From NCBI GenBank assembly GCA_039186435.1, contig JBCDAA010000002.1:2248-66247 (forward strand): a DNA stretch of 64,000 nucleotides, in the 5' to 3' direction. Origin of the DNA: Myxococcota bacterium (GTDB lineage Bacteria; Myxococcota_A; Polyangia; Polyangiales; Houyiibacteriaceae). Positions 24,401 to 52,094 of the stretch are shown here, in pieces. A program made the position numbers and the translations under genes. Numbering within the stretch: the stretch's first letter is position 1; each line of letters opens with the position of its first letter. The notes under the pieces were generated by a model. That model ran no database searches and was not told where the DNA came from. It saw only the letters and a list, made by a program, of their open reading frames with translations.

Positions 24401-24404
24401 GACG

Positions 24405-26789: not shown

Positions 26790-28018
26790 CGCTCGACCTC
26801 GACGCGTCCAAAGCCAGTGATCAGCCCAGTTGTCTGAAAGATCTCGATCAGGCTCTCGTCCTCGGCGATCTCGATCAGCGTGTTGTTTCCGGTAAACGCG
26901 GCTTCCGGGCGCTGAATGAACTGCCGATCGCCCACTTCAAATCCGGGTCCCGTGCGCGGCGAGACGGCATCCAGATCAAGGCGCCTTGAGGCGCTCAGGT
27001 TGTTGATGTCGACTTCAACCCAATACGAGACGGGTTCGTTCAGGAAGGTGAGAGGCGCGTCGCGCGGGTCGACGCTGCCGAGGCTTTCGTCCATGGCTGT
27101 GGTCAGGAACTTCCCGTCGCCTCGATAGAAGAGCCCGGTGCACGGAAGGCCCCCCGCCGCCTCGTTGAAGTCCACGAAGAATGCGGGATCGAAGGCGAGC
27201 TCATCGGGGGGAATGCGAAGCAAGCAGCTTGGGGGGAGCTCGTCATCGAACCACTGGCGAACGAGGTAGTTGTCTCCAAAGACGTAGATTGATCCGTCTT
27301 CCGCGAGGGCCATCCCAGAAAATCCGCCGACGCAGCGCTCGTCTTCGATCACGGCTTCGATCTCGTCCGTGGCGGTGTTGAAGACGGCGACCTGAATGCC
27401 TGGAAAGAACCCGCCGGCGAAGTCCTGTTGTTGAACCACCACAAAGAGGAGGTCGTCGCGGAGAACGCCCGGATCGATCTCCGGGAGAAAGTCCGGCTTC
27501 ATCAGCGGGCGTAGATCGATCTGGTCACCAATTTCGAGCGCCGCCGGGTCCCAGATGACAACGCGAATCCCGCCGGAACCATCAAAGAGGTACGCCTTGT
27601 CGTCCGAGATGAAGTTGTTGCCGAAAGGGATGAAGGAGAGCCCGAGGGCCGCGAGGCTGATTCGCTCACCAGGCTCCAGGGAACCGTCGGCTTGGGGAAA
27701 CCAGCGCTGCAATACCGGTTCCTCCGCGGAGCCCGTGAAGACCCGGTTGCCCTGTACGAAGACGCGTGCGTTGCCAGGAAGCTCGACGGCGTTTTCGGTT
27801 CCGATGGTGCGCCCCTCGATTTCATCGACGAGCTGCAGGTAGGACGTGCGTCCTTCCGGGCTCGCGATGGTGGTCTGGACGTACCAAAAGGCGGCTGGTT
27901 CGGTGGACGCGTCCGATCCGTCCGGCGGAGCGGCATCGCGCGCTCCTGCGTCCACGGGGGCGTCATCGTCGCCACCGCAACCGGAGAGAAGCGCTACGAG
28001 CAGCCATCGAGCGGTCAC
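26786..28018 (-). CDS. lipoprotein, paralog family member P2
   Basis: GTG 28018 (GTGA overlap with the upstream stop) gives VTARWLLVALLSGCGGDDD. Motifs are DDKAYLFD...VVIWDPAALEI, IEDERC and PSCLLR. Confidence 0.65.
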   Translation of the reverse strand: MTARWLLVALLSGCGGDDDAPVDAGARDAAPPDGSDASTEPAAFWYVQTTIASPEGRTSYLQLVDEIEGRTIGTENAVELPGNARVFVQGNRVFTGSAEEPVLQRWFPQADGSLEPGERISLAALGLSFIPFGNNFISDDKAYLFDGSGGIRVVIWDPAALEIGDQIDLRPLMKPDFLPEIDPGVLRDDLLFVVVQQQDFAGGFFPGIQVAVFNTATDEIEAVIEDERCVGGFSGMALAEDGSIYVFGDNYLVRQWFDDELPPSCLLRIPPDELAFDPAFFVDFNEAAGGLPCTGLFYRGDGKFLTTAMDESLGSVDPRDAPLTFLNEPVSYWVEVDINNLSASRRLDLDAVSPRTGPGFEVGDRQFIQRPEAAFTGNNTLIEIAEDESLIEIFQTTGLITGFGRVEVER

Positions 28019-28665
28019 GGCGTCACCTGAAAGCAGTAGACGCGGCGAGGGGGATCGCAGGGCGCACTTGCGCTTGCCGTCCATCCGTCGCCGGCTTCCG
28101 CGCAGCGGCCGACCGTTCCGTCGTCTTCAGGGTAGTACGATCGCCAACGCCGGCAGTCGACACCGGAGTAGCGACCGTCTGGGTTGGTGCCGGTAAACAC
28201 CTCGACGTCGCCCAACTCGTCGCCGTTCTCATCGAAGGAGATCGGAACACGCGGTCCAACGCGAAGTTCCTCGCGAGATTCGAATGCCATCATACCGTCG
28301 GTACGGTACCAAGGGCCCTCGCCACGCACGCTATCAACCGCGTCGCGTTCCCTCGTCGAGATCCAGGCGATCCACTCGCCTCCGAGCTCGGCACCTAGGC
28401 GCGTGCAGGTCTCGTTGGCCCGCGGAACGGAGTCTCCGGACAGCACCTCGGAGCTGACGAACACCCACGGACCCGTGACGTCCGGAGCGGCGTCCTCGGG
28501 AGCGGCGTCCTGTGCAGCGTCCAGTGGAGCGGCGTCGTCGGGAGCGGCGTCCTCGGAAGCGGCGTCCGGCGCATCATTCGAGGCCGCGTCCGAACCGGAG
28601 GCAGCGTCCGCCTCGGTCGGGGCGTTCGAATCGCACGCGAGAAGACTCGCGATAAAAACGAGCAT
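28015..28665 (-). CDS. lipoprotein, DUF1554-like (endostatin / C-type-lectin-like) domain
   Basis: ATG 28665 gives MLVFIASLLAC and an Ala/Asp/Pro linker. It then has VFVSS...ANETC...WIAWIST...WYRTDG...VFTGTNPDG...DCRRW...RVYCFQ, the Cys/Trp spacing I associate with DUF1554. Confidence 0.45.
   Translation of the reverse strand: MLVFIASLLACDSNAPTEADAASGSDAASNDAPDAASEDAAPDDAAPLDAAQDAAPEDAAPDVTGPWVFVSSEVLSGDSVPRANETCTRLGAELGGEWIAWISTRERDAVDSVRGEGPWYRTDGMMAFESREELRVGPRVPISFDENGDELGDVEVFTGTNPDGRYSGVDCRRWRSYYPEDDGTVGRCAEAGDGWTASASAPCDPPRRVYCFQVTP
28478..28612. repeat. imperfect 15-18 bp repeats encoding the (DAAPxDAA)n linker
   Basis: Recurring agcggcgtcctcggg-like units. Confidence 0.6.
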
Positions 28666-29266: not shown

Positions 29267-31765
29267 ATGATCGTTCGCTTGTCCCGTCTTCTTGCGGTGT
29301 GCTTGTTGCTTCCTGCGATGTCCTCGGCCCAAGGCCTCACGCCTCCTTCGCTGATCGAAGAGGCCGAGCCCACGCTTCGCGTGGAGCAAGAAGCAGCGGT
29401 CGTTCTGCGCATCACCATTGGTGCCGATGGCGCGGTCACGGAGGCGGAGGTGGTGGAAGGGGCAACGCCGTCTCTCGATCAGGCGGCGGTCGATGCCTTG
29501 CGTCGGTCGCGTTTTCGTCCAGCGACGCAGGCCGGCACTCCGGTTCCCGTTCGGGTTTTGTATCGACTGGTGTTTCGGCCGGACGTGTCGACGCAGGAAG
29601 AGCCGCCGGACACGGAACCGCAGGACACGGAACCGCAGGACGCGCCGCAGGACGCGCCGCAGGACGCGCCACAGGACACGGAACCGCAGGACACGCCGCA
29701 GGACGCGCCGCAGGACACGGAACCGCAGGACACGCCCACATTTGGCGCGGAAGCCGAGGTCGAGCGTGACTGGGAGGGACTCCTGGAACGTTCTGCGGAG
29801 GCCGTGAACGTGATCAACACGCGGGAGCTCCAGCACCGCGCGGTCGATCTCGGTGATGTGCTCGCCCGCGAACAAGGCGTCGCAATTCGGCGGAACGGCG
29901 GACTCGGATCCACCTCGCGCTTCTCTCTCGCCGGGCTCTACGATGACCAGATTCGCTTCTTCGTCGACGGCGTTCCGCTAAACGTCGCAGGCTTTCCATT
30001 CGGCCTTGCCAACGTTCCCATCTCCTTGGTCGACAGCGTCGAGATTCACCGAGGTGTGGTGCCCATTCGGCTCGGCGCGGATGCGCTTGGGGGCGCGGTG
30101 AATCTCAACGCGTCACAGCGCCTGCGGCAGACCTACGGCGCCGCCAGCTACCAGTTCGGGTCCTTCGGAACGCACCGCGCCTCGCTGGCGGCGCGCTATC
30201 ACGACGCGGACTCCGGCTTTGTCGTCGGAGGTCTCGCGTTCGCCGACCACAGTGACAACGACTACGACGTCGATGTCGAGATCCCCGACGAACGCGGACG
30301 CCTCCAACCCGCGCGCGTTCGGCGGTTTCACGATGCGTATACCGCGTTTGGTGGCACGTTTGACATCGGCGTGCTGGATCGACCCTGGGCGCGGCGGCTC
30401 ACGCTCCGCCTCTTCGGGACGGGATACGACAAAGAACTCCAGCACAACGTTGTGATGACCGTGCCCTATGGCGAGGTCACGTTCTTCGAGCGCGCCTACG
30501 GAGCGACTCTTCGCTACGACCACCAGATCGATGACGTTCGCGTGGATCTCGTGACAAGCGTCGCGACGCTACGAACGGACTTTCAGGACCTGGGAGAGCG
30601 CATCTTTGACTGGCGCGGCAACGTGCTCGGCGACCGCGCCGTACCAGGGGAGATTCAATCGGTTCCTCAGGATCAGACGTTTCGGCAGTGGACATCGTTT
30701 TCCCGGGCGGGAGTGTTCTGGGACGTGGTGAACGGACACACCCTCGGCGTGACGGCTACGCCGGAGTACACGACGCGGTCCGGCAACGATCGACGCACGG
30801 ACGATGAGCCCGACCCCCTGAGCGGCGAACAAGACCTCTTTAAACTGACGATCGGCGCCGCTCATGAGATGTCCATCGTCAACGACCGCATCGAGAATGT
30901 CCTGTTCGCCAAGTACTACTACTACCGTGCGGATACCGAGCAGCTGCTTCCAGGACGCGTCTTTCGGTCGCTCGACGAGCGCTCCCATACGCCCGGCGTC
31001 GGTAACGCAACGCGCTTCCTTCTTCATGACTCGTTCTGGATCAAGGCCTCTTACGAGTGGGCGACCCGTCTGCCCAATTCACCGGAGGTTTTTGGCGACG
31101 GTCGGTTGGTGCTAGCGAACCTGGAGCTGCAGCCCGAACGCAGCCACAACCTCAACCTCAGCGCGCAGCTCGATCACAATCACGAGGGGACCGGTCGGTG
31201 GGCTGCGGAAGTGAACCTCTTTGCGCGCTTGTCAGACGATCTGATCGTGCTTCTCGGGAACGAACGTTCCTTTATCCATCAGAACGTATTTCGCGCGCGC
31301 GGTCTCGGCGTCGAAGCGTCGGCCCAGTGGACATCGCCGGAGAGCCACGTGTCCCTCGGAGGAAACGTCACGTACCAGGACGTACGCAACGTTTCGTCGC
31401 AGGGGGCGTTCGGCGACTTTGATGGCGACCGAATTCCGAACCGGCCTTATTTCTTCGCGAACGCGAACGCGGCGCTCCGCGCGCCCAACCTGGTCGTCGA
31501 TGGGGACAGCCTGACGTTCAGCTGGGACTTTCGTTTTGTGCACGAGTTCTTTCGCGGCTGGGAGAGCCAGGGTCTTCGCGCGTTCAAGCAGACGGTGGAC
31601 ACGCAGCGAATCTTCGGCCTCGCGCTTTCCTACGCGACGCCGGATCCAACCCCGCTGACGTTTACGCTCGACCTCCAGAACGTGACCGATGCCCGCGTCT
31701 TTGACCTCTTTGGGGTTCAGCGCCCAGGGCGAACGGTCTTTTTCAAGGTTCGCGGCGAGATCTGA
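29267..31765 (+). CDS. TonB-dependent receptor with N-terminal TonB-C-like domain
   Basis: Signal LLPAMSSAQ. An ~80-aa TonB C-terminal-like module (VVLRITIGADGAVTEAEVVEG...LDQAAVDALRRSRFRPAT..GTPVPVRVLYRLVF), a PQD(T/A)(E)P repeat linker, a plug (RELQHRAVDLGDVLAREQGVAIRRNGGLGS) and a barrel. Confidence 0.85.
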   Translation: MIVRLSRLLAVCLLLPAMSSAQGLTPPSLIEEAEPTLRVEQEAAVVLRITIGADGAVTEAEVVEGATPSLDQAAVDALRRSRFRPATQAGTPVPVRVLYRLVFRPDVSTQEEPPDTEPQDTEPQDAPQDAPQDAPQDTEPQDTPQDAPQDTEPQDTPTFGAEAEVERDWEGLLERSAEAVNVINTRELQHRAVDLGDVLAREQGVAIRRNGGLGSTSRFSLAGLYDDQIRFFVDGVPLNVAGFPFGLANVPISLVDSVEIHRGVVPIRLGADALGGAVNLNASQRLRQTYGAASYQFGSFGTHRASLAARYHDADSGFVVGGLAFADHSDNDYDVDVEIPDERGRLQPARVRRFHDAYTAFGGTFDIGVLDRPWARRLTLRLFGTGYDKELQHNVVMTVPYGEVTFFERAYGATLRYDHQIDDVRVDLVTSVATLRTDFQDLGERIFDWRGNVLGDRAVPGEIQSVPQDQTFRQWTSFSRAGVFWDVVNGHTLGVTATPEYTTRSGNDRRTDDEPDPLSGEQDLFKLTIGAAHEMSIVNDRIENVLFAKYYYYRADTEQLLPGRVFRSLDERSHTPGVGNATRFLLHDSFWIKASYEWATRLPNSPEVFGDGRLVLANLELQPERSHNLNLSAQLDHNHEGTGRWAAEVNLFARLSDDLIVLLGNERSFIHQNVFRARGLGVEASAQWTSPESHVSLGGNVTYQDVRNVSSQGAFGDFDGDRIPNRPYFFANANAALRAPNLVVDGDSLTFSWDFRFVHEFFRGWESQGLRAFKQTVDTQRIFGLALSYATPDPTPLTFTLDLQNVTDARVFDLFGVQRPGRTVFFKVRGEI
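29606..29736. repeat. mixed 15/12-bp tandem repeats encoding (PQDTE/PQDA)n
   Basis: caggacacggaaccg and caggacgcgccg units alternate about ten times. Confidence 0.85.
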
Positions 31766-31874
31766 CCGGGCCACCTCCTTGCAATGGGTCCTGGATCACG
31801 CTCTTGGGCCAGGCGGCAAGAAATGAAAAGCGCTCACGATTTCAAATGCTTGCAAACCACTATGGGCGTGTGTA

Positions 31875-31893
31875 GATAATGACTTTCAATTTC
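31875..31893. promoter_or_regulatory. Fur-like box GATAATGACTTTCAATTTC
   Basis: 14/19 to the consensus. Lies 16 nt upstream of the DUF4397 lipoprotein ATG. Confidence 0.65.
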
Positions 31894-31908
31894 GATCGAG
31901 GAGGCGTC

Positions 31909-36528: not shown

Positions 36529-37752
36529 TCAGCGCAAACGAAAGCCGTTGAGAATGATCCCGGCTGTTTGAATCGCGCGCACCGGTCGGTCCCCGGAGAC
36601 GTCGAAGAGCCTACCGCCGGAGAAGTCCGCCCCGGGAGCGACAACGTAGGCGGTATCGTCGATCGTGAACGTGATCTGCGATGTCGAGAAGGGCTCGAGG
36701 TCCGTGAACACCTCCGCATCCTCGTCTCCGGCGAGGTCGAAGCGACCCCAGCGCCACATCGAGGTGCCGTTGAGTTCGCCGATCGTCAACGTCCCGTCCG
36801 GCACCAAGCTCTCATCGAGGACGCGCGTGAAGACGACGGTGCCCGTTCCTCCAAACATCGCAGCCGAAGGAACCCCACCGGTACGCTCGGAGAAGAGAAC
36901 GCGCTCCGCGATGTCATAGGACCCTGGGTCAAATCGCACGTAGCACTCCTCGCCGGCGCTCAGACCAGCGAGGCGGTTGGTTACCGAGGCAGTGTCGGAG
37001 GCCACGTAGATCGTACCGTCATCGAGCACTCGCGCGTAGGTGACGCCCTCGCAGTCCACGTCGATGACCTGCGAGATCGCTTCGGCTTCGGTGTCGATGA
37101 CCAGAACGCGCGAGAGTTCGTTGATCGACCCCGAGAACGACGCGTAGGTCACGGGGATGACCAGATCGTTCCCACGCCGTACGCCGCGGTTCACGAGCGG
37201 GATCCAGCCGGGGAGATCGAGCTGATCGAGGCTCTCCGTCCTGTCGATCACCATCTCCTCAGGATTCCAGAGGACCATTCGTCGGCTGAGGGTATCGAGA
37301 ACATACCCTCGGGTGGGCGACGTGAAGACGAGGTTTGCCGGGCTCGCCCGACTCGCGTCGACACTCGATCCAGCGAACGAGATTTCGCCGTCCTGACGCA
37401 AGACGCGGTCCTCGCTGATGCGCCATCGAGTCACCACAGGCGCCTGTCCGTTAGTCGTGAAGAAGGTTCCTGGTGTCGGGCCAGGCACCGCGATTCCGCC
37501 GCCTGGAACTTCGAGACCGATTGTGGGATCGACCTCGGTGTCCGCGTCGAGGGTTTCGACAAAGGAAAGCAAGCCGGTCTGTGGCGTTCCGGAAATGCGT
37601 GCGGAGATTGCAAAGTTCACCGGCGGAAGCATCGTGCCGCCAGCGTCGGTTCCGCTGTCCGTGTCACCGGCGTCGCTCGGACTGGCGGAGTCGTCGCCGC
37701 ACGCGATCGCAAAGAGCGTCGCGAGAACACACCAGAGCACCCTTGTTGTCAT
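36529..37752 (-). CDS. lipoprotein, paralog family member P3
   Basis: Lipobox TLFAIACGDD. Motifs are SPTRGYVLD...MVLWNPEEMVI, IDVDC and EECYVR. Its stop abuts the stop of the convergent adaptor gene with zero gap. Confidence 0.7.
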   Translation of the reverse strand: MTTRVLWCVLATLFAIACGDDSASPSDAGDTDSGTDAGGTMLPPVNFAISARISGTPQTGLLSFVETLDADTEVDPTIGLEVPGGGIAVPGPTPGTFFTTNGQAPVVTRWRISEDRVLRQDGEISFAGSSVDASRASPANLVFTSPTRGYVLDTLSRRMVLWNPEEMVIDRTESLDQLDLPGWIPLVNRGVRRGNDLVIPVTYASFSGSINELSRVLVIDTEAEAISQVIDVDCEGVTYARVLDDGTIYVASDTASVTNRLAGLSAGEECYVRFDPGSYDIAERVLFSERTGGVPSAAMFGGTGTVVFTRVLDESLVPDGTLTIGELNGTSMWRWGRFDLAGDEDAEVFTDLEPFSTSQITFTIDDTAYVVAPGADFSGGRLFDVSGDRPVRAIQTAGIILNGFRLR

Positions 37753-37836
37753 ACCGTCTTCTTAGTCCTGATGCGTAAGTACGCCAGCGTGGACTCCGGC
37801 GAAGAAAACGAGCCCAATCGGGGTGCTCGACTCAAC

Positions 37837-38265
37837 CTACGGAGCCGTGACGACTAGCTCTCCGCGCATCGCTACGAAGTGCCCGGGGAACGTACAGACA
37901 TAAGGATAGGTTCCCGGTTCCGGAGCGGTGAAGGTGACCTCGGTCGTTTCACCTCCTCCGACCAGCGACGTGTGGGCGATGATCGCGTCGCGCTGCGCGT
38001 CGGGAATGAAGTTGTTCGCTGCACCGGCTGCGGAAGCGGCGGCGGCGAAGGCGGGCACGTCGGTGTCTGGCTTCAAGATGACGACGTTGTGGCCCATGGC
38101 GGTCTTCGCCATTTGGCCGGTGTGACGAAGAGTGATCGTGACCTTCTGGCCGCTCACCGCCTCGATACGCGTGGTGTTGAAGGACATCTGATCCCCCGCC
38201 TGGAGCTCGACCGCGACATCCCCGCCGCAACCGAGCAGCACAACCAACCCAACGATATGTCTCAT
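37837..38265 (-). CDS. azu: azurin, lipoprotein form
   Basis: Lipobox VVLLGCGG, then QAGDQMSFNT..., GHNVV (His ligand) and YVCTFPGHFVAMRG (Cys-His-Met ligands). Collinear with classical azurin. Confidence 0.9.
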   Translation of the reverse strand: MRHIVGLVVLLGCGGDVAVELQAGDQMSFNTTRIEAVSGQKVTITLRHTGQMAKTAMGHNVVILKPDTDVPAFAAAASAAGAANNFIPDAQRDAIIAHTSLVGGGETTEVTFTAPEPGTYPYVCTFPGHFVAMRGELVVTAP

Positions 38266-38305
38266 GACTTTCGTTGTGCATTAATGACTTTGAATATCAA
38301 AGTCA
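38264..38305. promoter_or_regulatory. three overlapping TGACTTT(C/G)(G/A) half-sites including the 9-3-9 palindrome TGACTTTGA-ATA-TCAAAGTCA
   Basis: The palindrome at 38285-38305 has exact arms. AATGACTTTGAAT and ATGACTTTCG cores abut the azurin start codon. Confidence 0.55.
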
Positions 38306-38351
38306 GCAATTGAGAGAACGCACGAGAACGAGTGCGCGCGCCCTTCTATAT

Positions 38352-38370
38352 GATAATGAAAGTCATTAGC
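38352..38370. promoter_or_regulatory. Fur-like box GATAATGAAAGTCATTAGC (best match in window)
   Basis: 16/19 to GATAATGATAATCATTATC. Lies 14 nt upstream of the methyltransferase/ABC-exporter operon. Confidence 0.7.
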
Positions 38371-38383
38371 GATTGGAGCCGCA

Positions 38384-39211
38384 TTGAAAGACATCGCCGT
38401 CGAGCTTGGGCCCATTCAGGAGACCCTTCTGATCCCGCTTCTGGGACGCGCTGAGGAGACCCTCAAGAAGCGCGCTCTCCTCCGCGACCCGAAGGCCGTC
38501 GAGATCGTGGGTCGGCTCAACTATGACTTCTCGAAATGGCACGGCACTTCGAGCCTCGTTGGCGCATGCGTTCGGGCCCGTCTCTTTGACGCGATCGTCA
38601 TGTCGTTCCTCAAGGAGAACCCAGAGGGGACCGTCGTTGAAATCGGTGCGGGGCTAAACACGCGTTACGAGCGTCTCGACAACGGAACGGCCCGCTGGGT
38701 GGAGCTCGACCTTCCGGACAGCATGGCGCTTCGTCGTGAGTTCTTCGAGGATACCGAGCGCCGGACTCTCGTTACGGGAAGTGTTACCGACCCGGAATGG
38801 CATACGGCGGTCGGGGACGGTCCCGTCTGCTTCGTGTCGGAAGCGGTGTTGATCTACCTCGATGGGGACCAAGTTAAGGACGTCTTCGCGCAGCTGCTCG
38901 AACGCTTTTCGGGCGCGTGGGTTGTCATGGACACGGTGTCGTCCAAGATGGTGGACAGCCAAGCGAAGCACGACGCGATGCGCAAGCTTTCGGAGGAGAG
39001 CTGGTTTCGATGGAAGTGCGATGACCCGGCGAACCTCCACGAGTGGGGGCTGTGGCTGCAGCGGTCGCAAACGTTCCTCGATGCGTCAGACGAAATCGTC
39101 GAGGATATGCCGTGGGCGTATCAGATGATCACCCGATACGCGCCGTGGCTCATCCGTCGGCAGGTGAGCGGATATCGCATCAACCGTTTCGTACTTGGGC
39201 CGCCCGAGTGA
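38384..39211 (+). CDS. SAM-dependent methyltransferase, TcmP/LCM-like
   Basis: TTG start. Paralogous in layout to 18989-19801 (see that entry). Confidence 0.6.
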   Translation: MKDIAVELGPIQETLLIPLLGRAEETLKKRALLRDPKAVEIVGRLNYDFSKWHGTSSLVGACVRARLFDAIVMSFLKENPEGTVVEIGAGLNTRYERLDNGTARWVELDLPDSMALRREFFEDTERRTLVTGSVTDPEWHTAVGDGPVCFVSEAVLIYLDGDQVKDVFAQLLERFSGAWVVMDTVSSKMVDSQAKHDAMRKLSEESWFRWKCDDPANLHEWGLWLQRSQTFLDASDEIVEDMPWAYQMITRYAPWLIRRQVSGYRINRFVLGPPE

Positions 39212-40944
39212 AGCGGCTCCTCGCCTTCGTCCATAGCCCGTGGCTTGCGCTTGCGGTTGTGCTTCTGTGCTGCGCCGCACTCCTGGAGCTGACCCCTCAC
39301 GTGGTCGTCTACCTCGCAGCCGATGCACTTCTGCGCGACACACCGGCGATGGACCGCCTCCCGTGGCTTGCGGCGCTTGCGGTTGGTGGCGTGGTGCTTC
39401 GATATGTCTTCCTCGGCACAGGAACCGTTTTGAGCCACGCGACGGCGTTTCGAATGATGCGTCTAGCCCGGATCGCGATCGCCGAGAAACTCGCGCGGGT
39501 TCCGCTCGGGTTCTTCGGAACGCATTCGAGCGGGGACCTCAAGAAGACCACCGTCGACGATGTTGCGGCTCTCGAAGGCGTGTTTGCGCACAACCTTCCG
39601 GACCTTGCCTCTGCAGTGGTTGTCCCCGTCGCCGCGTTTGCGTGGCTTGCCCACGTTCTCGGGTGGGCAATGGCTCTCGTCAGTCTCGGTCTCGTGCCGA
39701 TCGCGTTCGCGGTTCAGGCCCGCGTGATGGGGTCGATGGGGGACGAGTTCAAGAAATGGCATGCTGCCGAAACGCGCGCGAACGAGTCGATCCTCGAGTT
39801 CCTTCGGGGCATCGCGGTTCTCAAGTCTTTTGATCGCGAAGCGCAGTCCCTCGAGCGAGTTCGCGATGGTGTCTACGGCATCCGTGACTACGCGACGGAA
39901 GTGACCGAGCGCATGATGACGGGCTATGCGCTTTTTGAGGTGCTCGTCTCGCACACGCTCCTCCTCGTGGTCCCGACGGCCGTTGCCGCGTATCTCGCCG
40001 GCTGGGTCGACGCGCCGGGTGTCGTGCTCTTCGTGGTTCTTGGCGCGGGAATGACCGCGCCCCTTTTGAAGCTGATGTTTCTCTTTGGTCGTGGCCACAT
40101 GACGAAACTCGGGGCGAAGCGAATTGTAGACGTGCTGGCCGCGGATGAGCTGACGGCGGGCGAGAGCGACGCCCCCAAGACGTTCGACATTGAAGTTCGC
40201 GGGGTGAGTTTTCGCTACGCGGAGGAGCGACCGAACGCCCTTGAGAACGTCAGCATCGTCGTCCCGGAGGGAACGGTGACCGCGATTGTGGGCCCGTCAG
40301 GATCGGGGAAGACCACGTTGGGTCGCATGCTGGTTCGAAGCACGGATCCCGATTCGGGAGCGATCGCGATCGGGGGCGTGGACCTCCGGGAGCTTCGCCC
40401 GGAACTCCTTACCACCCTCGTCGGTCGGGTCGAACAGGCGACGACGCTCTTCGTCGGGAGTGCACGAGAGAACCTTCTCCTCGCCAAGCCCGACGCGACC
40501 GACGATGAGCTTGAACGCGTGACGCGGGCCGCCAAGCTGCACGAGGTTCTCGCGCGACTTCCAAGCGGCTACGACACCGAACTTCAGGAGCGGGGCGGGC
40601 GGTTGTCTGGAGGGGAGCGACAGCGGCTTGGGATCGCGCGCGCGCTGCTTAAGGACGCGCCGGTGCTCCTCCTCGACGAGGTGACGTCCAACTTGGATGC
40701 CGAGACAGAGCACGCGGTTCAGCAGGGCATCAGCGCCCTCGCGGAGGGGCGGACGGTGATCGTGATCGCGCACCGACTCCGAAGCGTCGTTGGCTGCGAC
40801 CAAATTGTGGTTCTCGACGACGGTGCGGTCGTTGAGTCTGGAACGCACGAAGAGCTCCTCGCTCGCGACGGGCTCTACCGCGAGCTTTGGGACGCCCAAG
40901 AGTCGGCGCGTGACTGGACGCTTCGCGGGGGAGCGGCGCCTTGA
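39208..40944 (+). CDS. ABC exporter, fused permease/ATPase (half-transporter 1)
   Basis: GTG 39208 (GTGA overlap). Six-TM domain, then GPSGSGKTT, LSGGERQRLGIARAL and LLLDEVTSNLD. Confidence 0.85.
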   Translation: MKRLLAFVHSPWLALAVVLLCCAALLELTPHVVVYLAADALLRDTPAMDRLPWLAALAVGGVVLRYVFLGTGTVLSHATAFRMMRLARIAIAEKLARVPLGFFGTHSSGDLKKTTVDDVAALEGVFAHNLPDLASAVVVPVAAFAWLAHVLGWAMALVSLGLVPIAFAVQARVMGSMGDEFKKWHAAETRANESILEFLRGIAVLKSFDREAQSLERVRDGVYGIRDYATEVTERMMTGYALFEVLVSHTLLLVVPTAVAAYLAGWVDAPGVVLFVVLGAGMTAPLLKLMFLFGRGHMTKLGAKRIVDVLAADELTAGESDAPKTFDIEVRGVSFRYAEERPNALENVSIVVPEGTVTAIVGPSGSGKTTLGRMLVRSTDPDSGAIAIGGVDLRELRPELLTTLVGRVEQATTLFVGSARENLLLAKPDATDDELERVTRAAKLHEVLARLPSGYDTELQERGGRLSGGERQRLGIARALLKDAPVLLLDEVTSNLDAETEHAVQQGISALAEGRTVIVIAHRLRSVVGCDQIVVLDDGAVVESGTHEELLARDGLYRELWDAQESARDWTLRGGAAP

Positions 40945-42665
40945 TCGATCTTGGCTTTGACCTTGCCGGTCGCGTCGATCCCCGCATGCGCACTGGGTTG
41001 TGGCAGTCGGCCGTCGCCTCCGTCGCGGAGGTTGCGACCTATGCGCTCGCGTACGTCGTGCTCGAGAGCGTGCTTTCGGGGCAAAGGGTGGAACACATCC
41101 CGTGGATCGCTGCGGGGGCGATCCTTCTCGCCGTACTGGTGGGCTGGTTCTTCAAAGCGCGCGCTGGCCTCAACAACTTCGCGTCGACCTACAGTCTGGT
41201 GTGCGATGTACGGATGCGTCTCCTCGAGCATCTCCGCCGGCTGCCCATGGGCTTTTGGGCGTCCCGACGGGCCGGCGCAGTAAGCAGCATGCTTACGGAT
41301 GAGTTTGCGCTCTACACCGAGATCGCGACCCACGTTTGGGGGATGACGATTGCGCAGGCGACGTTTCCGGCGGTTCTTCTCGTCCTGCTCGCGATCGTGG
41401 ATTGGCGTCTCGCGATCGTTGCGGCGGCGCTCGTTCCTCTCGCTCTTCGAGCGGTTCCCTGGAGCCACCGCCTTCTCGATCGAGCCAGCGCGCGGCTTGC
41501 CAAAGTCCACGAAGAGTCTGTCGGTACGCTAGTCGAGTACGTGCAAGGGATCGAAACGCTACGTGAGTACGGAGCGGTCGGTTCTCAGCACCAAGCCCTG
41601 GAGGCATCTCAACGAGACCTGGAAAAGGAAATGATGCGGACCGAGCTCGCTCCGGCGCCCGCGATTCTGATGTACGCGTTTCTCGTTCACTTTGGCTTTG
41701 CGCTCGTTGTGGCGATCGGAGGCTGGCTGGTTGCGGAAGACGGACTTTCGCCGTTGACGCTTGTTCTCTTCCTCGTCGTCGGGCTCCGCTTCTTCGGATC
41801 CTTGGCCGATCTCTCCCTCTTCTTGGCGGAGGCGCGTTTTGCTTCACGGACTCTCCGGCGCCTACGCACGGTTGTTTCGACGGAAGCGCAGCACGATGTC
41901 GAAGTCGGGAACTCGCCGGTGGACGCGTCGCTCTCCGTCTCGGGTGTTCGTTTCGCCTACGAAGAAGGACGGCCGGTAATCGACGGGGTGGATGCCGAGT
42001 TCCGACCGGGGACACTCACAGCCCTCGTCGGTCCTTCCGGGTCGGGGAAGACCACCCTCGCGATGCTCTTGCCGCGGCTCTGGGACGCGGACGAGGGGAC
42101 GATCACCCTCGGTGGCGTGGATGTTCGCGACCTTCCGCTGCGTGAGCTGCAGTCGCATATCTCCGTTGTTTTTCAGGACGTGGTGCTCTTTCAGGGGACG
42201 GTCGAAGAGAACATTCGACTCGCTCGGCCGGGGGCGACCCGTGCCGAGGTTGTCGCCGCCGCAAAAGCAGCCAGGGCCGACGAGTTCATCGCTACTCTTC
42301 CGCTCGGGTACGACACTCTTCTCGGCGAGGGCGCGGAGGACCTTTCAGGCGGTCAGCGACAGCGCCTTTCGATCGCGCGTGCGCTCCTCAAGGACGCGCC
42401 GATTCTGATCCTCGACGAGGCGACTTCGGCAGTGGATCCGTACAACGAGCGTTTGATTCAGGAGGCGCTTGCGCGGCTCGTGAAGGGGCGAACCGTAATC
42501 GTCATCGCCCACCGCCTCGCGACGATTCAACACGCCGATCAGATTCTCGTGCTCGATGGTGGCCGCGTCGTTGAACGAGGCACGCACGACGACCTCCGGG
42601 CAGAGGACGGACTCTACGAGCGCTTGTGGGTGCGTCATCAGGAAGCCGCGCGCTGGCGGCTGTGA
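40941..42665 (+). CDS. ABC exporter, fused permease/ATPase (half-transporter 2)
   Basis: The start overlaps the upstream stop (TTGA; ATG 40986 is an alternative). Has GPSGSGKTT, LSGGQRQRLSIARAL and LILDEATSAVD. Confidence 0.85.
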   Translation: MIDLGFDLAGRVDPRMRTGLWQSAVASVAEVATYALAYVVLESVLSGQRVEHIPWIAAGAILLAVLVGWFFKARAGLNNFASTYSLVCDVRMRLLEHLRRLPMGFWASRRAGAVSSMLTDEFALYTEIATHVWGMTIAQATFPAVLLVLLAIVDWRLAIVAAALVPLALRAVPWSHRLLDRASARLAKVHEESVGTLVEYVQGIETLREYGAVGSQHQALEASQRDLEKEMMRTELAPAPAILMYAFLVHFGFALVVAIGGWLVAEDGLSPLTLVLFLVVGLRFFGSLADLSLFLAEARFASRTLRRLRTVVSTEAQHDVEVGNSPVDASLSVSGVRFAYEEGRPVIDGVDAEFRPGTLTALVGPSGSGKTTLAMLLPRLWDADEGTITLGGVDVRDLPLRELQSHISVVFQDVVLFQGTVEENIRLARPGATRAEVVAAAKAARADEFIATLPLGYDTLLGEGAEDLSGGQRQRLSIARALLKDAPILILDEATSAVDPYNERLIQEALARLVKGRTVIVIAHRLATIQHADQILVLDGGRVVERGTHDDLRAEDGLYERLWVRHQEAARWRL

Positions 42666-43854: not shown

Positions 43855-45423
43855 GTGAGGGTGAAATCGATAGGGGTTTGCCTTTCAATGCTCCTTCTTC
43901 TCGGGTGCGAAGGCAGCCAGCGCTGTGATGAGCCCGCGTCGATGGAGACCCACCAGGTTCGCGCGTCGGATGACGTCGAGCTCGTCTTCACGATCTTTCG
44001 TCCGGCTGGGGCCTGCGGCGCCGACCCGGTTCCCATCATCCTCTGGAATCACGGGTATCCGGAGTCGCGGGCGGACTCCTTGGACGACGCGCGTCCCTAT
44101 CTCGAACGCGGCTACGGGTTTGTCTCCCTCGACCAGCGGGGCATCCTCGGGGAGACCGGAGGATTCACCAGCGGTGCCGCCCGTCCTGGCATCGAGGACG
44201 CCGACGCGAGCCTCGTCCTCGATTGGGTGCACGACAACGTTGAGTGGGCCGAGCGTGAACCTTCGTCGGGAATCGAACGGGACCTTGCTGTGGGAACGTT
44301 CGGCAACGGCGGCGGTGGCCATCTCTCTCTACTTCTCGCCGCGTCGGATCCACGCATCGACGCGGTCGTTCCCTACGTGGCGTACTCGTCCGTACTCGAC
44401 GATGTATTCGTCCCGAACGAGGCTCCCCGCGCATTTTGGGCCGCTCTCTTTCTCGATTTCTCCATCACCCTCGGAGTGCGTTTCGATCCAACGTTGCTGC
44501 CGTCGATCGAGAGCGCCGGCGAAACCCTGATCGTCGACGAAGTACTCCGCGAGGTCTGGCGGGAGTCCGACATTACTTCGGTCGGCGACCGCATTCGCGC
44601 GCCGACGATGTTCCTCCATCCGCTTCCCGATCAGATCACGAGCGGACTTCGCGCGGCGGTACGTAGCCATCAGTCGATCGCGACGGATCCCTCGGAGCGA
44701 TGGCTCATCGGCTTGAATGCGCCCTTTCTCGATATCGGAGATACCCGCGGATTTGGCGTGGGGGCGCCCGACCGAGAACGTCCGAACCAGTGCGCTGACA
44801 TCTACACGCCAGGCTTTCAGGGAGGTGGCCTCGGCCGTTTTCTCGACGGCGAGCTGCTCTTTCTCTTCTTCGACGCGTTCGTTCGCCGTGACGAGGCAGC
44901 TCGGGCACGGATGGACAGGGTGCCGCACGTGCTTCTTCCGATCGAACAAGACGGGTGTCTTCGCGCGGACGCGTGGCCGGTGGCGGCGCGCGTTGAGGAG
45001 TACGCCCTTGGGAACGTCGCGATTCCGCAGGACGACGCGGCGATGTCGTTTCCTCTTTTGGAGGCCACGGAGCCGATGCTCCTCGCGGGCACGGTCGAGT
45101 TCGCCGCGACGATTCCTGACGGGCAGGACGAGATTTTTCTCGGTTCCCTCGTCGTCGTCAGCGGTGACCGCTCCTACGTGGTGAACGACCAGGTGCACGG
45201 CGCGCAGACGGGACGTTTCTCGGGGCGAATCAACCTGGATCTCAGCACCGTCGTGACGCGCTTGGAGGCCGGAGACTCGCTTCGCTTTGTGGTCGAGGGC
45301 GAACAGTTTCTCTACGCCCGCGCCGGGGGTGAGATCACGGAGCCGGCGTCTCTCGAGGATGTTGTGGTTCGGGTGCCCTTCGCGGAGATCGGTCTCGCGG
45401 GTGGGCCGGAGATGATCGAGTGA
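43855..45423 (+). CDS. CocE/NonD (S15)-like alpha/beta-fold lipoprotein, nucleophile Ser apparently absent
   Basis: Lipobox SMLLLLGCEG. PVPIILWNHGY...GYGFVSLDQRG is typical of the family. Where GxSYxG is expected the sequence reads VGTFGNGGGGH. Confidence 0.6.
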   Translation: MRVKSIGVCLSMLLLLGCEGSQRCDEPASMETHQVRASDDVELVFTIFRPAGACGADPVPIILWNHGYPESRADSLDDARPYLERGYGFVSLDQRGILGETGGFTSGAARPGIEDADASLVLDWVHDNVEWAEREPSSGIERDLAVGTFGNGGGGHLSLLLAASDPRIDAVVPYVAYSSVLDDVFVPNEAPRAFWAALFLDFSITLGVRFDPTLLPSIESAGETLIVDEVLREVWRESDITSVGDRIRAPTMFLHPLPDQITSGLRAAVRSHQSIATDPSERWLIGLNAPFLDIGDTRGFGVGAPDRERPNQCADIYTPGFQGGGLGRFLDGELLFLFFDAFVRRDEAARARMDRVPHVLLPIEQDGCLRADAWPVAARVEEYALGNVAIPQDDAAMSFPLLEATEPMLLAGTVEFAATIPDGQDEIFLGSLVVVSGDRSYVVNDQVHGAQTGRFSGRINLDLSTVVTRLEAGDSLRFVVEGEQFLYARAGGEITEPASLEDVVVRVPFAEIGLAGGPEMIE

Positions 45424-46670
45424 CGTACGAGCGACTCGGAGGAGTCCCGAAACATCTCGCACTCTGCCTGGCGCTGCTCGCCTGTGGGGGCACGTCGTCG
45501 CGAGACGCGGAGGTCGACGTAGGAGACGCGCCCGAAGGGCCGCTTCGGCAGTTCCTCGTGGGCGGAATCACCGTGACGCCCGATGGAAGCAACGCGTTTG
45601 GCGTCGTAGTTTCGGAGCTTTCCCTCGGCGTGGACATCGACCTTGGCTCCGCGGCCGTCTTTGCGGGAAGGCCGTCCGTCGCGGTTTCTCCCGACCGAGA
45701 CGGCGTCGTCTGGATCGGTCTCGACGAAGAACCTGTGGTTGAACGGTACGAGGTAGGCGCTGACGGGTTCCTCGAGCTCGTGGACCGCATGAGCGTTGCG
45801 GGTCTCGGTCTGTCGAGCGGTCGCGGCACGGAGCTCGACGGGATTCAGATTCTCTCGCCGCAGAAGGCGTACCTGATCGACGCAGAGACCCTCCAAGTCG
45901 TGGTGTTCGATCCGACCGAAATGGAACTCCTGCGCTCTTTTTCCCTCGAGGGCTTGGCGCGCGAAGGGCGCGGGTTCATCGACATTGTTCGAGACGGCGA
46001 ACGCATCGTGATCGTCGCGAGTACGTTTCGCGCGGACGACACCGCGGACCTTGAAACGAGGGCGGCGTTCGTCGACCTGCAGACCGATGAGGTTCGCTAC
46101 GCGTCCCAAGGTCGCTGCGGAAATCTGGCGTGGAGTGCACGCGACTCGGATGGAAATCTCTACTTTGCGTCTCATCCGCAGCAGGGGGCCGACGTTGCGG
46201 TTGGCACGGCAGGCGATCCTCCGAGTCCGCCCTGTCTCGTGCGGATTCGCGCGGGGGAGGCTGGCTTTGACGAAGGCTACTTCGTCGACCTTCGAGAGCT
46301 CGCGGGTGGCCCGGCGGGTGCGGTCGTTCAAGCCGGTGGCGGGTGGGCGTACACGCTGGTCTACGACGAAAGTCGAACGCCGCTGACGATCGACAACGTG
46401 GCCCTATCGACGCTCCTTGCGGAGTGGCGTTATTTCGCGTTTCGGCTGGGTGACGAAGCTGAAGGGGGTCAGCGGATCGAGAGCATTCGCCCCTCGTCCG
46501 GCATCGGGTTGGGATTCAGCGTCAACACCGGGATCGCGGAAGTGCCCATGGTCACAATCCCGAACGCTGGGTTTGCGCGAAGCACCGTGTACGACGTTTC
46601 CGATCCTCTCTCCTTCGAACGGCGGATGTTGGTACCGGGTCTTGCGTTTGGGGCGTTGAGAGTTCGCTGA
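45420..46670 (+). CDS. lipoprotein, paralog family member P4
   Basis: The GTG start overlaps the upstream stop. Lipobox LALLACGG. Motifs are SPQKAYLID...VVVFDPTEMEL, SQGRC and PPCLVR. Confidence 0.65.
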   Translation: MTYERLGGVPKHLALCLALLACGGTSSRDAEVDVGDAPEGPLRQFLVGGITVTPDGSNAFGVVVSELSLGVDIDLGSAAVFAGRPSVAVSPDRDGVVWIGLDEEPVVERYEVGADGFLELVDRMSVAGLGLSSGRGTELDGIQILSPQKAYLIDAETLQVVVFDPTEMELLRSFSLEGLAREGRGFIDIVRDGERIVIVASTFRADDTADLETRAAFVDLQTDEVRYASQGRCGNLAWSARDSDGNLYFASHPQQGADVAVGTAGDPPSPPCLVRIRAGEAGFDEGYFVDLRELAGGPAGAVVQAGGGWAYTLVYDESRTPLTIDNVALSTLLAEWRYFAFRLGDEAEGGQRIESIRPSSGIGLGFSVNTGIAEVPMVTIPNAGFARSTVYDVSDPLSFERRMLVPGLAFGALRVR

Positions 46671-46854: not shown

Positions 46855-47118
46855 GTGGCGGCGCAGCCTCAAACGAAACGAGTGATCGCGTGCGTTAGTG
46901 CGGGGTTCTTCCTTGCGTTGCTCGTGGCCCTTGGAGCGACCGCATGGCTTCCGGAAGGGGCAGGTAAGGTCAACAACCTCGTATTCCCGGCCGTCGCCTT
47001 TCCGCTGGTGTGGGTTGGCATCGCGGTCTTTCTTCTGGGAGCGCGGCGTCGTCGTGCGTGGGCGATCTCGTTGGGTGTTGCGCTCCTCGCCGCGTTGCCC
47101 GCGCTGATTCGGCTATGA
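46855..47118 (+). CDS. small membrane protein (3 TM)
   Basis: 87 aa, hydrophobic. The stop overlaps the PepSY start (ATGA). Small membrane proteins commonly precede PepSY-TM genes. Confidence 0.5.
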   Translation: MAAQPQTKRVIACVSAGFFLALLVALGATAWLPEGAGKVNNLVFPAVAFPLVWVGIAVFLLGARRRRAWAISLGVALLAALPALIRL

Positions 47119-48623
47119 CGCGTGAAGTCGGTGTTCGTCGGGCGCTCTACGAAGCCCATCGCGCGGTCGGACTCGCGTTCGGGTTCCTCGGCCTTCTGCT
47201 TGTGTTCAGCGGGGTAGTCGCGATCTTTGTGGACGACCTCGCCGCGTGGGCCGAGCGCGATCGTCACAGTCCTCCGATGAGTGCGTCGGTGGAACGGCTG
47301 GACGAGTGGCTCGCGACGGCTTCCGCCCGCGTCGACGCGGAGCGACGATCGAGCGTGCGCGTCTTTCAACGCGAGCGCGATGCGGTTCTCTTCCTCTTTT
47401 CGAGTGATGGCGACCCCGTCTTCGAGGCGGTTTGGGTCGATCCCGTGGGCGGCGCCCTCGCGGACTATCGCCGAGGAAGCATCGCGGAGATCTTCGCGCC
47501 CCTCGACGGGCAGGTGCTGAGCCGATTCTTCGTCAGCCTTCACGTTCGTTTTCTCCTTCCAGGTCGGGCTGGAAGCCTGAGCGTAGGCCTCGTCGGAATC
47601 ATGCTGCTGCTTCTGGTCTTCACCGGGATCTATGTGCACTGGCCGCGGCGAGCGCTTTTTCGCCGGCCTCGTGGTGCACGACGGCAACTCCTCGGCGCAG
47701 TTCACACGTTAGCTGGCATTTGGACGCTTCCGTTCACCGTACTGATCATCGTGACGGGGGCGTTCTTTAGTTTTGCCACGACGGTTCTTCTTCCAGCGCT
47801 CGCGTTCGCATCGCACGGCGGCGACATCGAGGCAGTTCAGCGCGCGATTCAGACTCCGGTCGAGGTTCCGCCAGCGACCGGTCAGGCCTCCGCGTCGTCC
47901 ATCTGTGCGGATGCCATCGAGCGCACCAACCTCGTGCTGCAGCAGGTGGAACTCAAAAACTGGGGGGAGCAAGACGCGCACGCGATCGTGCGCCTCGCCG
48001 ACCCGGGGTGGGACCTGAGCGGTCGTCTCTTGGCCTACAGCGGCCACACGGGCGAGTTTCTCGAAGAGCGCGGGTCGATTGGCGCCAAACCCTCCGCTGG
48101 CGCGACGACCGTCGAAGCTGTGCGCGCCCTTCATTTTGGAACGCTCGCAGGCGCGACGACGAAGATTCTGTGGGCCATCTTTGGGCTTTTGATGTGCGTG
48201 CTCTCGATCTCGGGGCTTTGGGTTCGTGCTGCCCGCACACGCACTTGGCGATCTCAGCTCCTTGTTGTGGCGTCCGCGTCGTTTCCGTTTGCGAGCTTCC
48301 TCGCGGTGCTGGCCTGGGCGATATCGCCGACGACGACGGCGATGACGGTGGCGTTCGGTGCGGCGCACGTGATCGGCGCCCTTGCGGGTTTGCGTAACCT
48401 GCGCCTCTTGGCCGGTCTAACGGCCACCACTGGGCTCCTCGTTCCCATCGCCGGCTACCTTGCGACGGACGTGAGCCCGTTTGCCGCGCTCGCGCAGTCT
48501 GAAGGCGCCTCTGTGATCGCGGTCGACGGGTTCTGTGTGCTGCTCTCGCTGACGCTCTGGATCCTCATTGCCCGCGGAGTGCGTGCAGCGCCGTCCGAAG
48601 ATCCCAGTCTCGCTCATCGCTAA
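47115..48623 (+). CDS. PepSY-associated TM-helix protein
   Basis: ATG 47115. Has YEAHRAVGLAFGFLGLLLVFSG, VHTLAGIWTLPFTVLIIVTG and ALHFGTLAGATTKILWAIFG signatures. Confidence 0.8.
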   Translation: MTREVGVRRALYEAHRAVGLAFGFLGLLLVFSGVVAIFVDDLAAWAERDRHSPPMSASVERLDEWLATASARVDAERRSSVRVFQRERDAVLFLFSSDGDPVFEAVWVDPVGGALADYRRGSIAEIFAPLDGQVLSRFFVSLHVRFLLPGRAGSLSVGLVGIMLLLLVFTGIYVHWPRRALFRRPRGARRQLLGAVHTLAGIWTLPFTVLIIVTGAFFSFATTVLLPALAFASHGGDIEAVQRAIQTPVEVPPATGQASASSICADAIERTNLVLQQVELKNWGEQDAHAIVRLADPGWDLSGRLLAYSGHTGEFLEERGSIGAKPSAGATTVEAVRALHFGTLAGATTKILWAIFGLLMCVLSISGLWVRAARTRTWRSQLLVVASASFPFASFLAVLAWAISPTTTAMTVAFGAAHVIGALAGLRNLRLLAGLTATTGLLVPIAGYLATDVSPFAALAQSEGASVIAVDGFCVLLSLTLWILIARGVRAAPSEDPSLAHR

Positions 48624-51723: not shown

Positions 51724-52094
51724 GTTCGTCTCGCAAGAAGTCGAAGGCCGCGAGGTGAAATTCGCAGGGTCGCTTTGCCGAGGATCGCCGCTTTCGGAAT
51801 GGTCCCGAGCTGCCGGCTGTCTCGCGCCCCAAAGGGGTTGTCGCTTGTCACTGAAATCCCATTTGGCGTTGCCGTTGCGACTCGCTTGACGAGGCGCTGG
51901 CGACTCTCCGCATCCTGAAAAATCACAATATCGCCCGGAGCTACGCTCCCTTTACGGACCAGAAGCCGGTCCCCTTCCTCGAGGGCCGGTTCCATGCTCG
52001 TGCCTTCGACGGCGACCAGCGATCGCCGCCGAAGGGTCCATGCAGTGAGTTCGCGAACGGTCCGGGCGACGCTCGTCAGCCGGCGAGGACCCAC
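51720..52094 (-). CDS. sodX: nickel-SOD maturation protease SodX (S26-like)
   Basis: GTSMEPAL (Ser) and LVKRV (Lys) signal-peptidase-like dyad. Lies immediately downstream of sodN. Confidence 0.8.
   Translation of the reverse strand: MGPRRLTSVARTVRELTAWTLRRRSLVAVEGTSMEPALEEGDRLLVRKGSVAPGDIVIFQDAESRQRLVKRVATATPNGISVTSDNPFGARDSRQLGTIPKAAILGKATLRISPRGLRLLARRT

Follow-up and report, generated by a model that had tools for sequence, protein, structure and literature searches.

A putatively lipid-anchored azurin, predicted to be under Fur-type control, beside a XusB-like lipoprotein in an iron-acquisition island of an uncultured member of the Myxococcota

The window described here is a stretch of 64,000 nucleotides from an uncultured member of the Myxococcota (GenBank assembly GCA_039186435.1, contig JBCDAA010000002.1, positions 2,248 to 66,247 of the forward strand). 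It appears to hold the main iron-acquisition island of this genome. Within it, the gene of a predicted lipid-anchored azurin (azu) lies behind Fur-like boxes and is followed on the same strand by the gene of a lipoprotein, P3, whose relatives are called the P-family below. The reading that we favour, at a probability of about 55%, is that azu and P3 form a Fur-repressed two-gene iron-starvation unit, in which azurin would serve the iron-starvation regulon as an electron carrier that uses copper and no haem. The features of this unit and of its divergent neighbour are as follows.

37837-38265, minus strand: azurin gene (142 aa), copper ligands G58/H59, C124, H129 and M133
38227-38265, minus strand: signal peptide MRHIVGLVVLLG and lipid-acceptor Cys13, lipobox L10-L11-G12-C13
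37753-37836, minus strand: azurin-P3 spacer of 84 nt, with no Fur-like box of its own
36529-37752, minus strand: P3, a 407-aa lipoprotein (…FAIAC18GDD), its stop abutting the stop of a convergent MacAB-like operon
38265-38272, plus strand: half-site TGACTTTC overlapping the azurin start codon, in no scoring box
38279-38299: Fur-like box overlapping the palindrome with a 6-bp shift, 23.4 bits (22.8 in the leave-out model explained below)
38285-38305: perfect 21-bp palindrome TGACTTTGAATATCAAAGTCA, a Fur-like box of 23.5 bits (23.4 leave-out)
38351-38371: third Fur-like box, 27.3 bits (27.1 leave-out), 13 bp before the divergent methyltransferase start
38384-39211, plus strand: LCM-type S-adenosylmethionine methyltransferase gene, divergent from azurin, heading a two-gene ABC exporter operon (39043-42665)

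The product of 37837-38265 is, judged from its sequence, a true azurin. It matches Pfam Copper-bind (PF00127) with an E value of 6.4e-18 (65.4 bits, threshold 21.2) and clears the NCBI equivalog TIGR02695 'azurin' with 109.8 bits against a cut-off of 105.1. Among solved structures in the PDB, its sequence is closest to azurins, auracyanin A and the Laz of Neisseria (6e-24 to 1e-21). The type-1 copper ligands are complete, have azurin spacing and align with those of solved azurins: G58-H59 (GHNVV) and C124-x4-H129-x3-M133 (CTFPGHFVAM). All of this agrees with the initial annotation, which had called the gene an azurin from these two ligand contexts. The Cys3-Cys26 disulfide of classical proteobacterial azurins is absent, with Val and Gly at the aligned positions, as it is from other Myxococcota homologs; this bond does not define the family, and auracyanins also lack it. 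The gene encodes the sole PF00127 cupredoxin of the 9.5-Mb genome.

The start of the azurin is fixed by an in-frame TAA 15 nt 5' of the ATG, so a longer N-terminus is impossible, and the lipobox LLGC that had been placed at the end of the signal is read at L10-C13 with no alternative upstream start. Mature azurin would begin with C-G-G-D and pass directly into strand 1, which leaves a tether of three residues (G-G-D). A lipobox is found in most Myxococcota azurin homologs, many of which also have long Ala/Pro/Glu-rich linkers. A tree separates an azurin-type clade (16 sequences) from an auracyanin-like clade (10), and most relatives in the azurin-type clade have A/P/E-rich linkers of roughly 20-70 residues; the window azurin has no Ala/Pro-rich linker. 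The residue at position +2 is Gly, not Lys. In Myxococcus xanthus, Lys at +2 marks lipoproteins of the inner membrane (PMC3222651), and in Escherichia coli, according to one study, sorting to the outer membrane may suffer from very short linkers (10.1101/2021.01.05.425367). The short tether and the Gly at +2 suggest an azurin held tight against a membrane, and the M. xanthus +2 rule, if applied, would by analogy only place it at the outer membrane.

Boxes were scored with a 21-bp Fur-like motif model built iteratively from this genome only (consensus TGATATTGAAATTCAATATCA) and with a leave-out model, which is the same motif rebuilt without the azurin intergenic region. Scores of at least 23.4 bits occur at 28-31 positions in 9.45 Mb, and at none in random sequence of the same composition. 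Across the island, Fur-like boxes stand in nearly every divergent or leader region (8164-8292, 16308, 21457-21559, 29191, 31874, 38351, 43137, 46803 and 50693), where they precede imelysin/DHOR, HmuY-like, PepSY_TM, TonB-receptor and other operons. All have the skeleton TGA-N3-TGA-N3-TCA-N3-TCA in common, which is the canonical Fur box plus flanking bases. The palindrome upstream of azurin fits this skeleton at 12/12 positions. Four sites do so genome-wide, and the other three resemble ordinary Fur boxes; the palindrome itself is unique in the 9.47-Mb genome. The third box matches the E. coli Fur consensus at 16/19 positions (38352-38370), which bears out the Fur-like box reported there before, and the palindrome at only 11/19.

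Fur operators usually consist of overlapping boxes 6 bp apart. By motif score, the intergenic region common to azurin and the methyltransferase/ABC exporter operon holds two predicted Fur-type operator arrays, of which one belongs to azurin and the other to the divergent operon. In line with such control, the genome encodes two Fur-family proteins, a Fur homolog at 4936-5298 of contig C36 and a second member on C186. What had been described as 'stacked palindromic operators' is one palindrome, that is, two overlapping Fur-type boxes 6 bp apart. A separate, non-Fur operator of that kind was rejected, since the palindrome scores within the Fur-like motif of the genome even in the leave-out model. 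Of the three TGACTTT(C/G) half-sites claimed at the start codon, the exact palindrome that they include stood up, and the count did not: four copies lie within 101 bp (38265-38365), at 38265, 38285, 38298 (minus) and 38358 (minus). The 8-mer is by no means rare: the window holds 6 copies where 2.8 would be expected, and at least 6 turn up in 4/100 shuffles. The copy at 38265-38272 is probably there by chance.

It is improbable that the palindrome is bound by another regulator (PerR, Zur or a copper or redox sensor) and that azurin is not iron-responsive. Such a regulator could be argued from the outer spacers of the palindrome (CTT/AAG), which are unlike the A/T-rich spacers of the strongest boxes, from the 11/19 match to the E. 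coli consensus, from the presence of two Fur-family genes in the genome, and from a box in one related genome that precedes a peroxiredoxin-azurin operon and would suit PerR. However, the palindrome scores like the boxes of the TonB receptor, PepSY and imelysin operons, even in the leave-out model, the azurin boxes of relatives have ordinary A/T-rich spacers, and the neighbourhood is entirely iron-related. No CueR-, CsoR- or CopY-like site was seen by eye (no scan was made), and there is no copper regulator gene nearby, the nearest MerR-family gene being 22 kb away.

One other box of the island has an unusual position. The Fur-like box AGATAATGACTTTCAATTTCG at 31874-31894 (29.8 bits) overlaps the listed ATG (31879) of a gene for a DUF4397 lipoprotein, so that the operator would cover the start codon unless translation in fact begins further downstream.

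Azurin homologs are patchy, occurring in 5/41 close relatives and in 23/401 Myxococcota genomes. Four further genomes of the same family or order carry azurin in iron-uptake neighbourhoods, and the arrangement is different each time (loci of other genomes are given as L numbers, and g6 denotes one genus).

L007 (g6): Ni-superoxide dismutase (Ni-SOD) gene divergent from P-like, azurin, imelysin, DHOR, imelysin and HTTM genes
L008 (g6): Ni-SOD gene divergent from azurin, small transmembrane protein, PepSY_TM and imelysin genes
L009: TonB receptor gene; membrane protein, azurin and P-like genes (19-nt gap)
L011: azurin gene convergent with a P-like gene

In g6, the spacer between the Ni-SOD genes (L007 7840-8454; L008 4146-4826) and azurin has a Fur-like box. 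The imelysin/DHOR cassette that directly follows azurin in L007 is the same as that of the window, and a single imelysin gene separates azurin from DHOR there. L007, L008, L009, L011, L015 and L020 each have boxes of 22-30 bits at a distance of 14-100 nt 5' of azurin or its operon; L015 and L020 come from two other Myxococcota families. This repeated, independently arranged pairing of box and azurin is the strongest evidence that azurin would be iron-regulated in this lineage. Taken with the motif of the genome itself, it backs the predicted metal control (iron, Fur-type) of a lipid-anchored azurin, which the initial annotation had put forward. In the auracyanin-like clade, no Fur-like box was found near azurin. 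The 36 azurin loci examined in other phyla and in metagenomes showed no P-family, imelysin, DHOR or PepSY_TM gene and no convincing box near azurin; the few box matches at these loci fall in low-GC DNA. Within the 41 relatives, P-family and PepSY_TM genes occur together in 5/5 azurin genomes versus 5/36 others (Fisher test by hand, 3.4e-4). Ni-SOD occurs in four of the 41, three of which have azurin.

Three other Myxococcota azurin loci have neighbours of interest in their own right. L020 (genome G159, 8194-9833) shows an oxidative-stress context, with a Fur-/PerR-like box (28.3 bits) followed by a 2-Cys peroxiredoxin gene, a 105-aa open reading frame (ORF) and azurin. In L014 (G090, 3060-5563), an azurin with a long linker of AAEEAP-type repeats is followed by an ORF of 191 aa and the gene of a di-haem cytochrome c peroxidase (CCP_MauG), which is the classical pairing of azurin and peroxidase. 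L015 (G341, 8207-10362) has a strong box of 30.5 bits 5' of azurin and, on the same strand some 350 nt upstream, an ApbE flavin-transferase gene; a 79-aa Cys-rich ORF lies between the two genes.

P3 had been described as an unknown lipoprotein, a label that no longer holds, as both its profile and its fold place it with XusB and DUF4374. P3 has no Pfam or NCBIfam match and stays below the gathering score of DUF4374 (PF14298), the family to which XusB belongs in Pfam; P1, another member of the P-family, reaches 18.9 bits against a threshold of 25. DUF4374 is matched by 24/80 aligned P-family members at E<=0.01, at best with 3e-9. A P-family profile built from seven members retrieves 1350 representative clusters at E<=0.001, and it matches XusB (9hqe) with an E value of 7.2e-19 over positions 8-402 of 408 and other DUF4374 structures at about 1e-13. 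The AlphaFold2 model of P3 is all-beta (predicted local distance difference test 91, predicted template-modelling score 0.86). In Foldseek searches of the PDB, ranks 1-6 for P3 are Bacteroides fragilis XusB with or without ferrichrome (E 8e-15, template-modelling scores 0.64-0.69), followed by BtuG vitamin-B12 capture lipoproteins. On the model and the profile, P3 is a remote lipoprotein of the XusB/DUF4374 type with a predicted seven-bladed beta-propeller, the blades being taken from its likeness to XusB and not counted. XusB is a surface lipoprotein with a seven-bladed beta-propeller that captures ferric siderophores on behalf of XusA, a TonB-dependent transporter, and XusC is a PepSY-domain inner-membrane protein that is thought to reduce iron (PMC13142918).

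This genome has 13 members of the P-family; a relative, G021, has 17. P3 itself adjoins neither a TonB receptor nor a PepSY_TM gene, and the paralog P2 follows PepSY_TM. In other genomes, P-family genes lie next to TonB receptor genes in L009, L073, L074, L076 and L077, with PepSY_TM as well in L073 and L076. The L076 operon (G013:C8, 3501-10478) is Xus-like and consists of genes for a TonB receptor, a P-family protein, a PepSY_TM protein of 706 aa fused to a C-terminal esterase/alpha-beta-hydrolase domain, and a secreted thioredoxin-like protein (CGPC). From its gene content, this operon would combine the functions of reductase, siderophore esterase and thiol reductant. L052 (Logan contig SRR22824307, 1251-13123) holds six paralogs of the P-family and two genes for PepSY_TM proteins within 13 kb, as well as a TetR gene, with very strong Fur-like boxes of 32-34 bits at 4450-4476.

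The other genes of the window that bear on the unit are given below.

3213-8579, minus strand: imelysin/DHOR di-haem/imelysin/HTTM cassette, behind the Fur-like boxes at 8164-8292
22823-24400, plus strand: second PepSY_TM copy
24318-25592, plus strand: P-family paralog
26786-28084, minus strand: P-family paralog
29267-31765: TonB receptor, heading an operon convergent with P3; the nearest receptor to P3
45420-46670, plus strand: P-family paralog
47010-48623, plus strand: PepSY_TM membrane protein of the FoxB/XusC type, preceded by the Fur-like box at 46803
52076-52549, minus strand: Ni-SOD, an iron-free substitute enzyme

The imelysin genes (4546-8579) are about 30 kb from azurin, and DHOR, encoded at 5616-6989, is the sole CxxCH (c-type haem) protein of the island. 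The paralog at 45420-46670 is full-length, has no Pfam or NCBIfam match and follows a CocE/NonD-like lipoprotein gene. Directly 5' of PepSY_TM, both the window (46882-47070, plus strand) and L008 (3178-3492) encode a small hydrophobic protein (about 100 aa); the two are 44% identical over 64 residues and unannotated, and the ORF in the window overlaps the start of the listed PepSY_TM ORF.

P3 follows azurin after 84 nt on the same strand with no obvious terminator, as noted earlier, and a scan of the spacer agrees: it shows no terminator-like hairpin, and its fold is not unusually stable (z 0.59). On these two tests, neither a terminator nor a structured RNA was retained for the spacer. Co-transcription of azu and P3 is probable. 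P3 has no box of its own and the other three window paralogs lie in boxed operons; iron control of P3 would therefore require read-through from azurin, and this is the main argument for co-transcription.

The initial annotation had proposed that azurin is the electron donor or acceptor for a ferric-ligand redox step involving P3. Besides the adjacency of the two genes on one strand with no terminator, such a pair could be argued from the presence of azurin beside some P-family gene in four genomes. It could be argued also from the docking of cupredoxins on beta-propeller enzymes, methylamine dehydrogenase/amicyanin being among the weak fold matches of P3 (Foldseek rank 48). Against it stand the three closest orthologs of P3 (68, 50 and 48% identity), none of which has azurin within the available flanks. 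In L053 (1-1986), a methyltransferase gene directly precedes the P3 ortholog of 48% identity on the same strand, whereas in the window (36529-39211) the two are divergent with azurin between them, which suggests, from the gene order, that azurin was inserted together with an inversion. No azurin adjoins 12/13 P-family genes of this genome or 16/17 of G021. The P-family genes that lie beside azurin elsewhere are only 26-31% identical to the window paralogs, and their orders and orientations differ. With four P-family genes among roughly 55 genes of the island, chance adjacency is not rare. XusB-type proteins bind siderophores without a redox cofactor and are surface-exposed in Bacteroides (PMC13142918). 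No small redox carrier was found in the typical TonB receptor/P-family/PepSY_TM operons of azurin-less relatives. The idea that azurin replaces a small c-type cytochrome encoded in the Xus-like operons of these relatives found no support, the only CxxCH-like match being the thioredoxin-like CGPC protein. A specific azurin-P3 pairing was rejected on the orthologs that have no azurin nearby. The proposed redox step is not borne out by the kin of P3, which have no known redox cofactor, by its orthologs and paralogs or by the typical operons. A direct redox couple of azurin and P3 is unlikely, and a specific pair with P3 as the site of a ferric-ligand redox step is very improbable. Azurin looks like a 'floating' member of the iron regulon in this lineage and not a private partner of P3.

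The Fur-repressed iron-starvation unit that we favour would work as follows. A Fur-type repressor is predicted to bind the two overlapping 21-bp boxes 20-40 bp 5' of the azurin start codon, and the third box (38351-38371) would control the divergent methyltransferase/ABC exporter operon. When iron is scarce, a membrane-fixed azurin with its lipid on Cys13 would be made, and P3, whose known kin supply a TonB-dependent receptor with captured ferric siderophores, would be made by read-through of the 84-nt spacer. Azurin would then serve as a one-electron carrier while iron for c-type cytochromes is short, in much the way that Ni-SOD takes over from Fe-SOD. Its role has two sub-readings: azurin may be a general stand-in for c-type cytochromes, or it may be a carrier for the redox enzymes of the regulon itself. 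The second is favoured because azurin is embedded inside uptake operons, because azurins and pseudoazurins are established donors to di-haem cytochrome c peroxidases and DHOR is di-haem peroxidase-like, and because L014 pairs azurin with a CCP_MauG gene. It is favoured further because DHOR, the only c-type haem protein of the island, lies two genes downstream of azurin in g6, and because EfeO fuses cupredoxin and imelysin domains while imelysins are nearly always linked to di-haem peroxidases. Laz donates electrons to the di-haem peroxidase Ccp (PMC6277709), and in EfeO a cupredoxin domain is fused to an imelysin domain, imelysins being nearly always linked to di-haem peroxidases (PMC3143127). 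For the electron partner of azurin, redox enzymes of the same regulon (DHOR of the imelysin cassette or the PepSY_TM reductases) are the leading candidates, at somewhat less than even odds. General respiratory or periplasmic electron transfer is a tentative second choice, P3 itself is hardly credible, and the remainder falls to other partners.

A more specialised role is possible but doubtful. Azurin could be a dedicated copper-dependent component of iron uptake, a trans-acting counterpart of the EfeO cupredoxin domain or of FtrB, which shuttles electrons between PepSY_TM (FoxB/XusC-type) or DHOR and the iron species of the Xus-like and imelysin systems and is not a general cytochrome substitute. 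Azurin lies inside uptake operons in four different arrangements, directly 5' of imelysin-DHOR in L007 and of PepSY_TM-imelysin in L008, and among the 41 relatives it is confined to genomes with P-family and PepSY_TM genes. The fusion in EfeO and the close tie of imelysins to di-haem peroxidases (PMC3143127) point the same way, as does FtrB, a cupredoxin in an iron transporter (PMC11966278). Yet the typical TonB receptor/P-family/PepSY_TM operons of azurin-less relatives have no equivalent carrier, their one CxxCH-like candidate being thioredoxin-like, and the window azurin is 30 kb from imelysin and DHOR. Ni-SOD, a plain iron-sparing enzyme, has a similar phyletic pattern, and thermodynamics disfavour the reduction of ferric siderophores by azurin. 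No FTR1/EfeU permease was seen in the window, and an EfeO/FtrB-type linkage of azurin to an M75 imelysin or FTR1 was not found there, its neighbours being P3 and the methyltransferase.

Several points weigh against the favoured reading of a Fur-repressed unit with azurin as the carrier of the regulon. The source is a fragmented metagenome-assembled genome with an estimated contamination of 7.6%. Several related contigs are short, and the co-occurrence rests on about four genera and is uncorrected for phylogeny. The seeds of the motif model were chosen by the analyst. A simple scan of the region found no sigma-70-like promoter; by eye, TTGCTG-N18-ATTAAT would set the palindrome over the promoter spacer, as a weak match. 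A single clade of Fur-boxed azurins found no support: the tree does not resolve the branching among azurin-type sequences, and clustering of the Fur-box label on it is not significant. Azurin is absent from 36/41 relatives overall and from half of those that bear Xus-like systems, so no partner strictly needs it. DHOR is present in 4/5 azurin genomes versus 24/36 others, and DHOR as the azurin partner was not retained on co-occurrence, as its presence in 28/41 relatives makes the test not discriminating. The midpoint potentials of azurins are near +300 mV, far too high to reduce typical ferric siderophores. A same-genus comparison of synteny was also tried and dropped: two genomes have no P3 homolog and ABC exporters only about 35% identical, and no comparison was possible.

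Lipid-anchored azurin (Laz), Fur regulons, Xus systems and imelysin/DHOR cassettes are already known. What is new, on gene order and motif scores, is a canonical azurin under conserved, predicted Fur-type control that, within one myxobacterial lineage, lies inside Xus-like and imelysin operons. Of the papers that a full-text search listed, none pairs azurin with Fur-box or Fur-regulon terms, and a survey of azurin gene distribution mentions neither iron nor gene neighbourhoods. Within the literature searched, the earlier statement that a metal-regulated lipo-azurin beside a lipoprotein is undescribed holds. New as well is the assignment to the XusB kind of a large family (about 1350 representative clusters, with P3 itself lacking a Pfam match) that is expanded in some Myxococcota; Xus-like systems, so far described in Bacteroidota, are thus strongly expanded there. 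The physiological role of azurin is poorly understood even in Pseudomonas (PMC13413535). If azurin is iron-regulated here, the logic of copper-for-iron substitution would reach bacterial periplasmic electron carriers, and azurin would be a candidate partner for the PepSY_TM siderophore reductases and for the DHOR di-haem proteins of imelysin cassettes. To our knowledge, the electron partners of these two groups of proteins have not been established.

The unit can be compared with several known systems. Laz of Neisseria (PDB 2n0m and 3ay2), a periplasm-facing electron carrier (PMC6277709), likewise joins an azurin domain to a lipoprotein signal peptide, and its PDB match to the window azurin is about 1e-21. 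Laz has a long Ala/Pro-rich linker, whereas the window azurin has a three-residue tether, and Laz is induced by anoxia and not by iron limitation, whereas the window azurin has Fur-like elements and iron-uptake neighbours. XusABC of Bacteroides resembles the set of TonB receptor, P-family lipoprotein and PepSY_TM that occurs in the window and in relatives, and P3 and its paralogs match XusB by profile and fold. P3 is, however, about 14% identical to XusB and sub-threshold in Pfam, the ligand-contacting loops of XusB are not conserved, the P-family is strongly expanded here, and azurin is part of no described Xus system (PMC13142918).

Iron-sparing swaps such as plastocyanin for cytochrome c6, flavodoxin for ferredoxin and Ni-SOD for Fe-SOD also bring in an iron-free protein when iron is scarce. 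Ni-SOD is encoded in the same island, and in g6 the Ni-SOD and azurin genes have a common Fur-boxed intergenic region. The iron-sparing option of the initial annotation, azurin in place of c-type cytochromes, fits this repeated adjacency and co-occurrence with Ni-SOD. Iron transporters, too, have cupredoxin folds that are encoded with iron-uptake genes and under iron control, as is predicted here, namely the N-terminal Cup domain of EfeO in EfeUOB and FtrB in FtrABCD, and EfeO joins its cupredoxin to an imelysin (M75) much as L007 and L008 hold azurin in an operon with stand-alone imelysins. These systems differ in that the window protein is a canonical azurin (TIGR02695) and not a homolog of EfeO-Cup or FtrB, and in that the imelysin cassette of the window is 30 kb off. 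Finally, the 'EfeU-less' Fur-regulated operons of the Pseudomonas aeruginosa PA4370-PA4373 type have the same order of imelysin, DHOR, imelysin and HTTM behind Fur-like boxes as the window and L007. The described cassettes have no cupredoxin, whereas in g6 azurin is added upstream with a box of its own.

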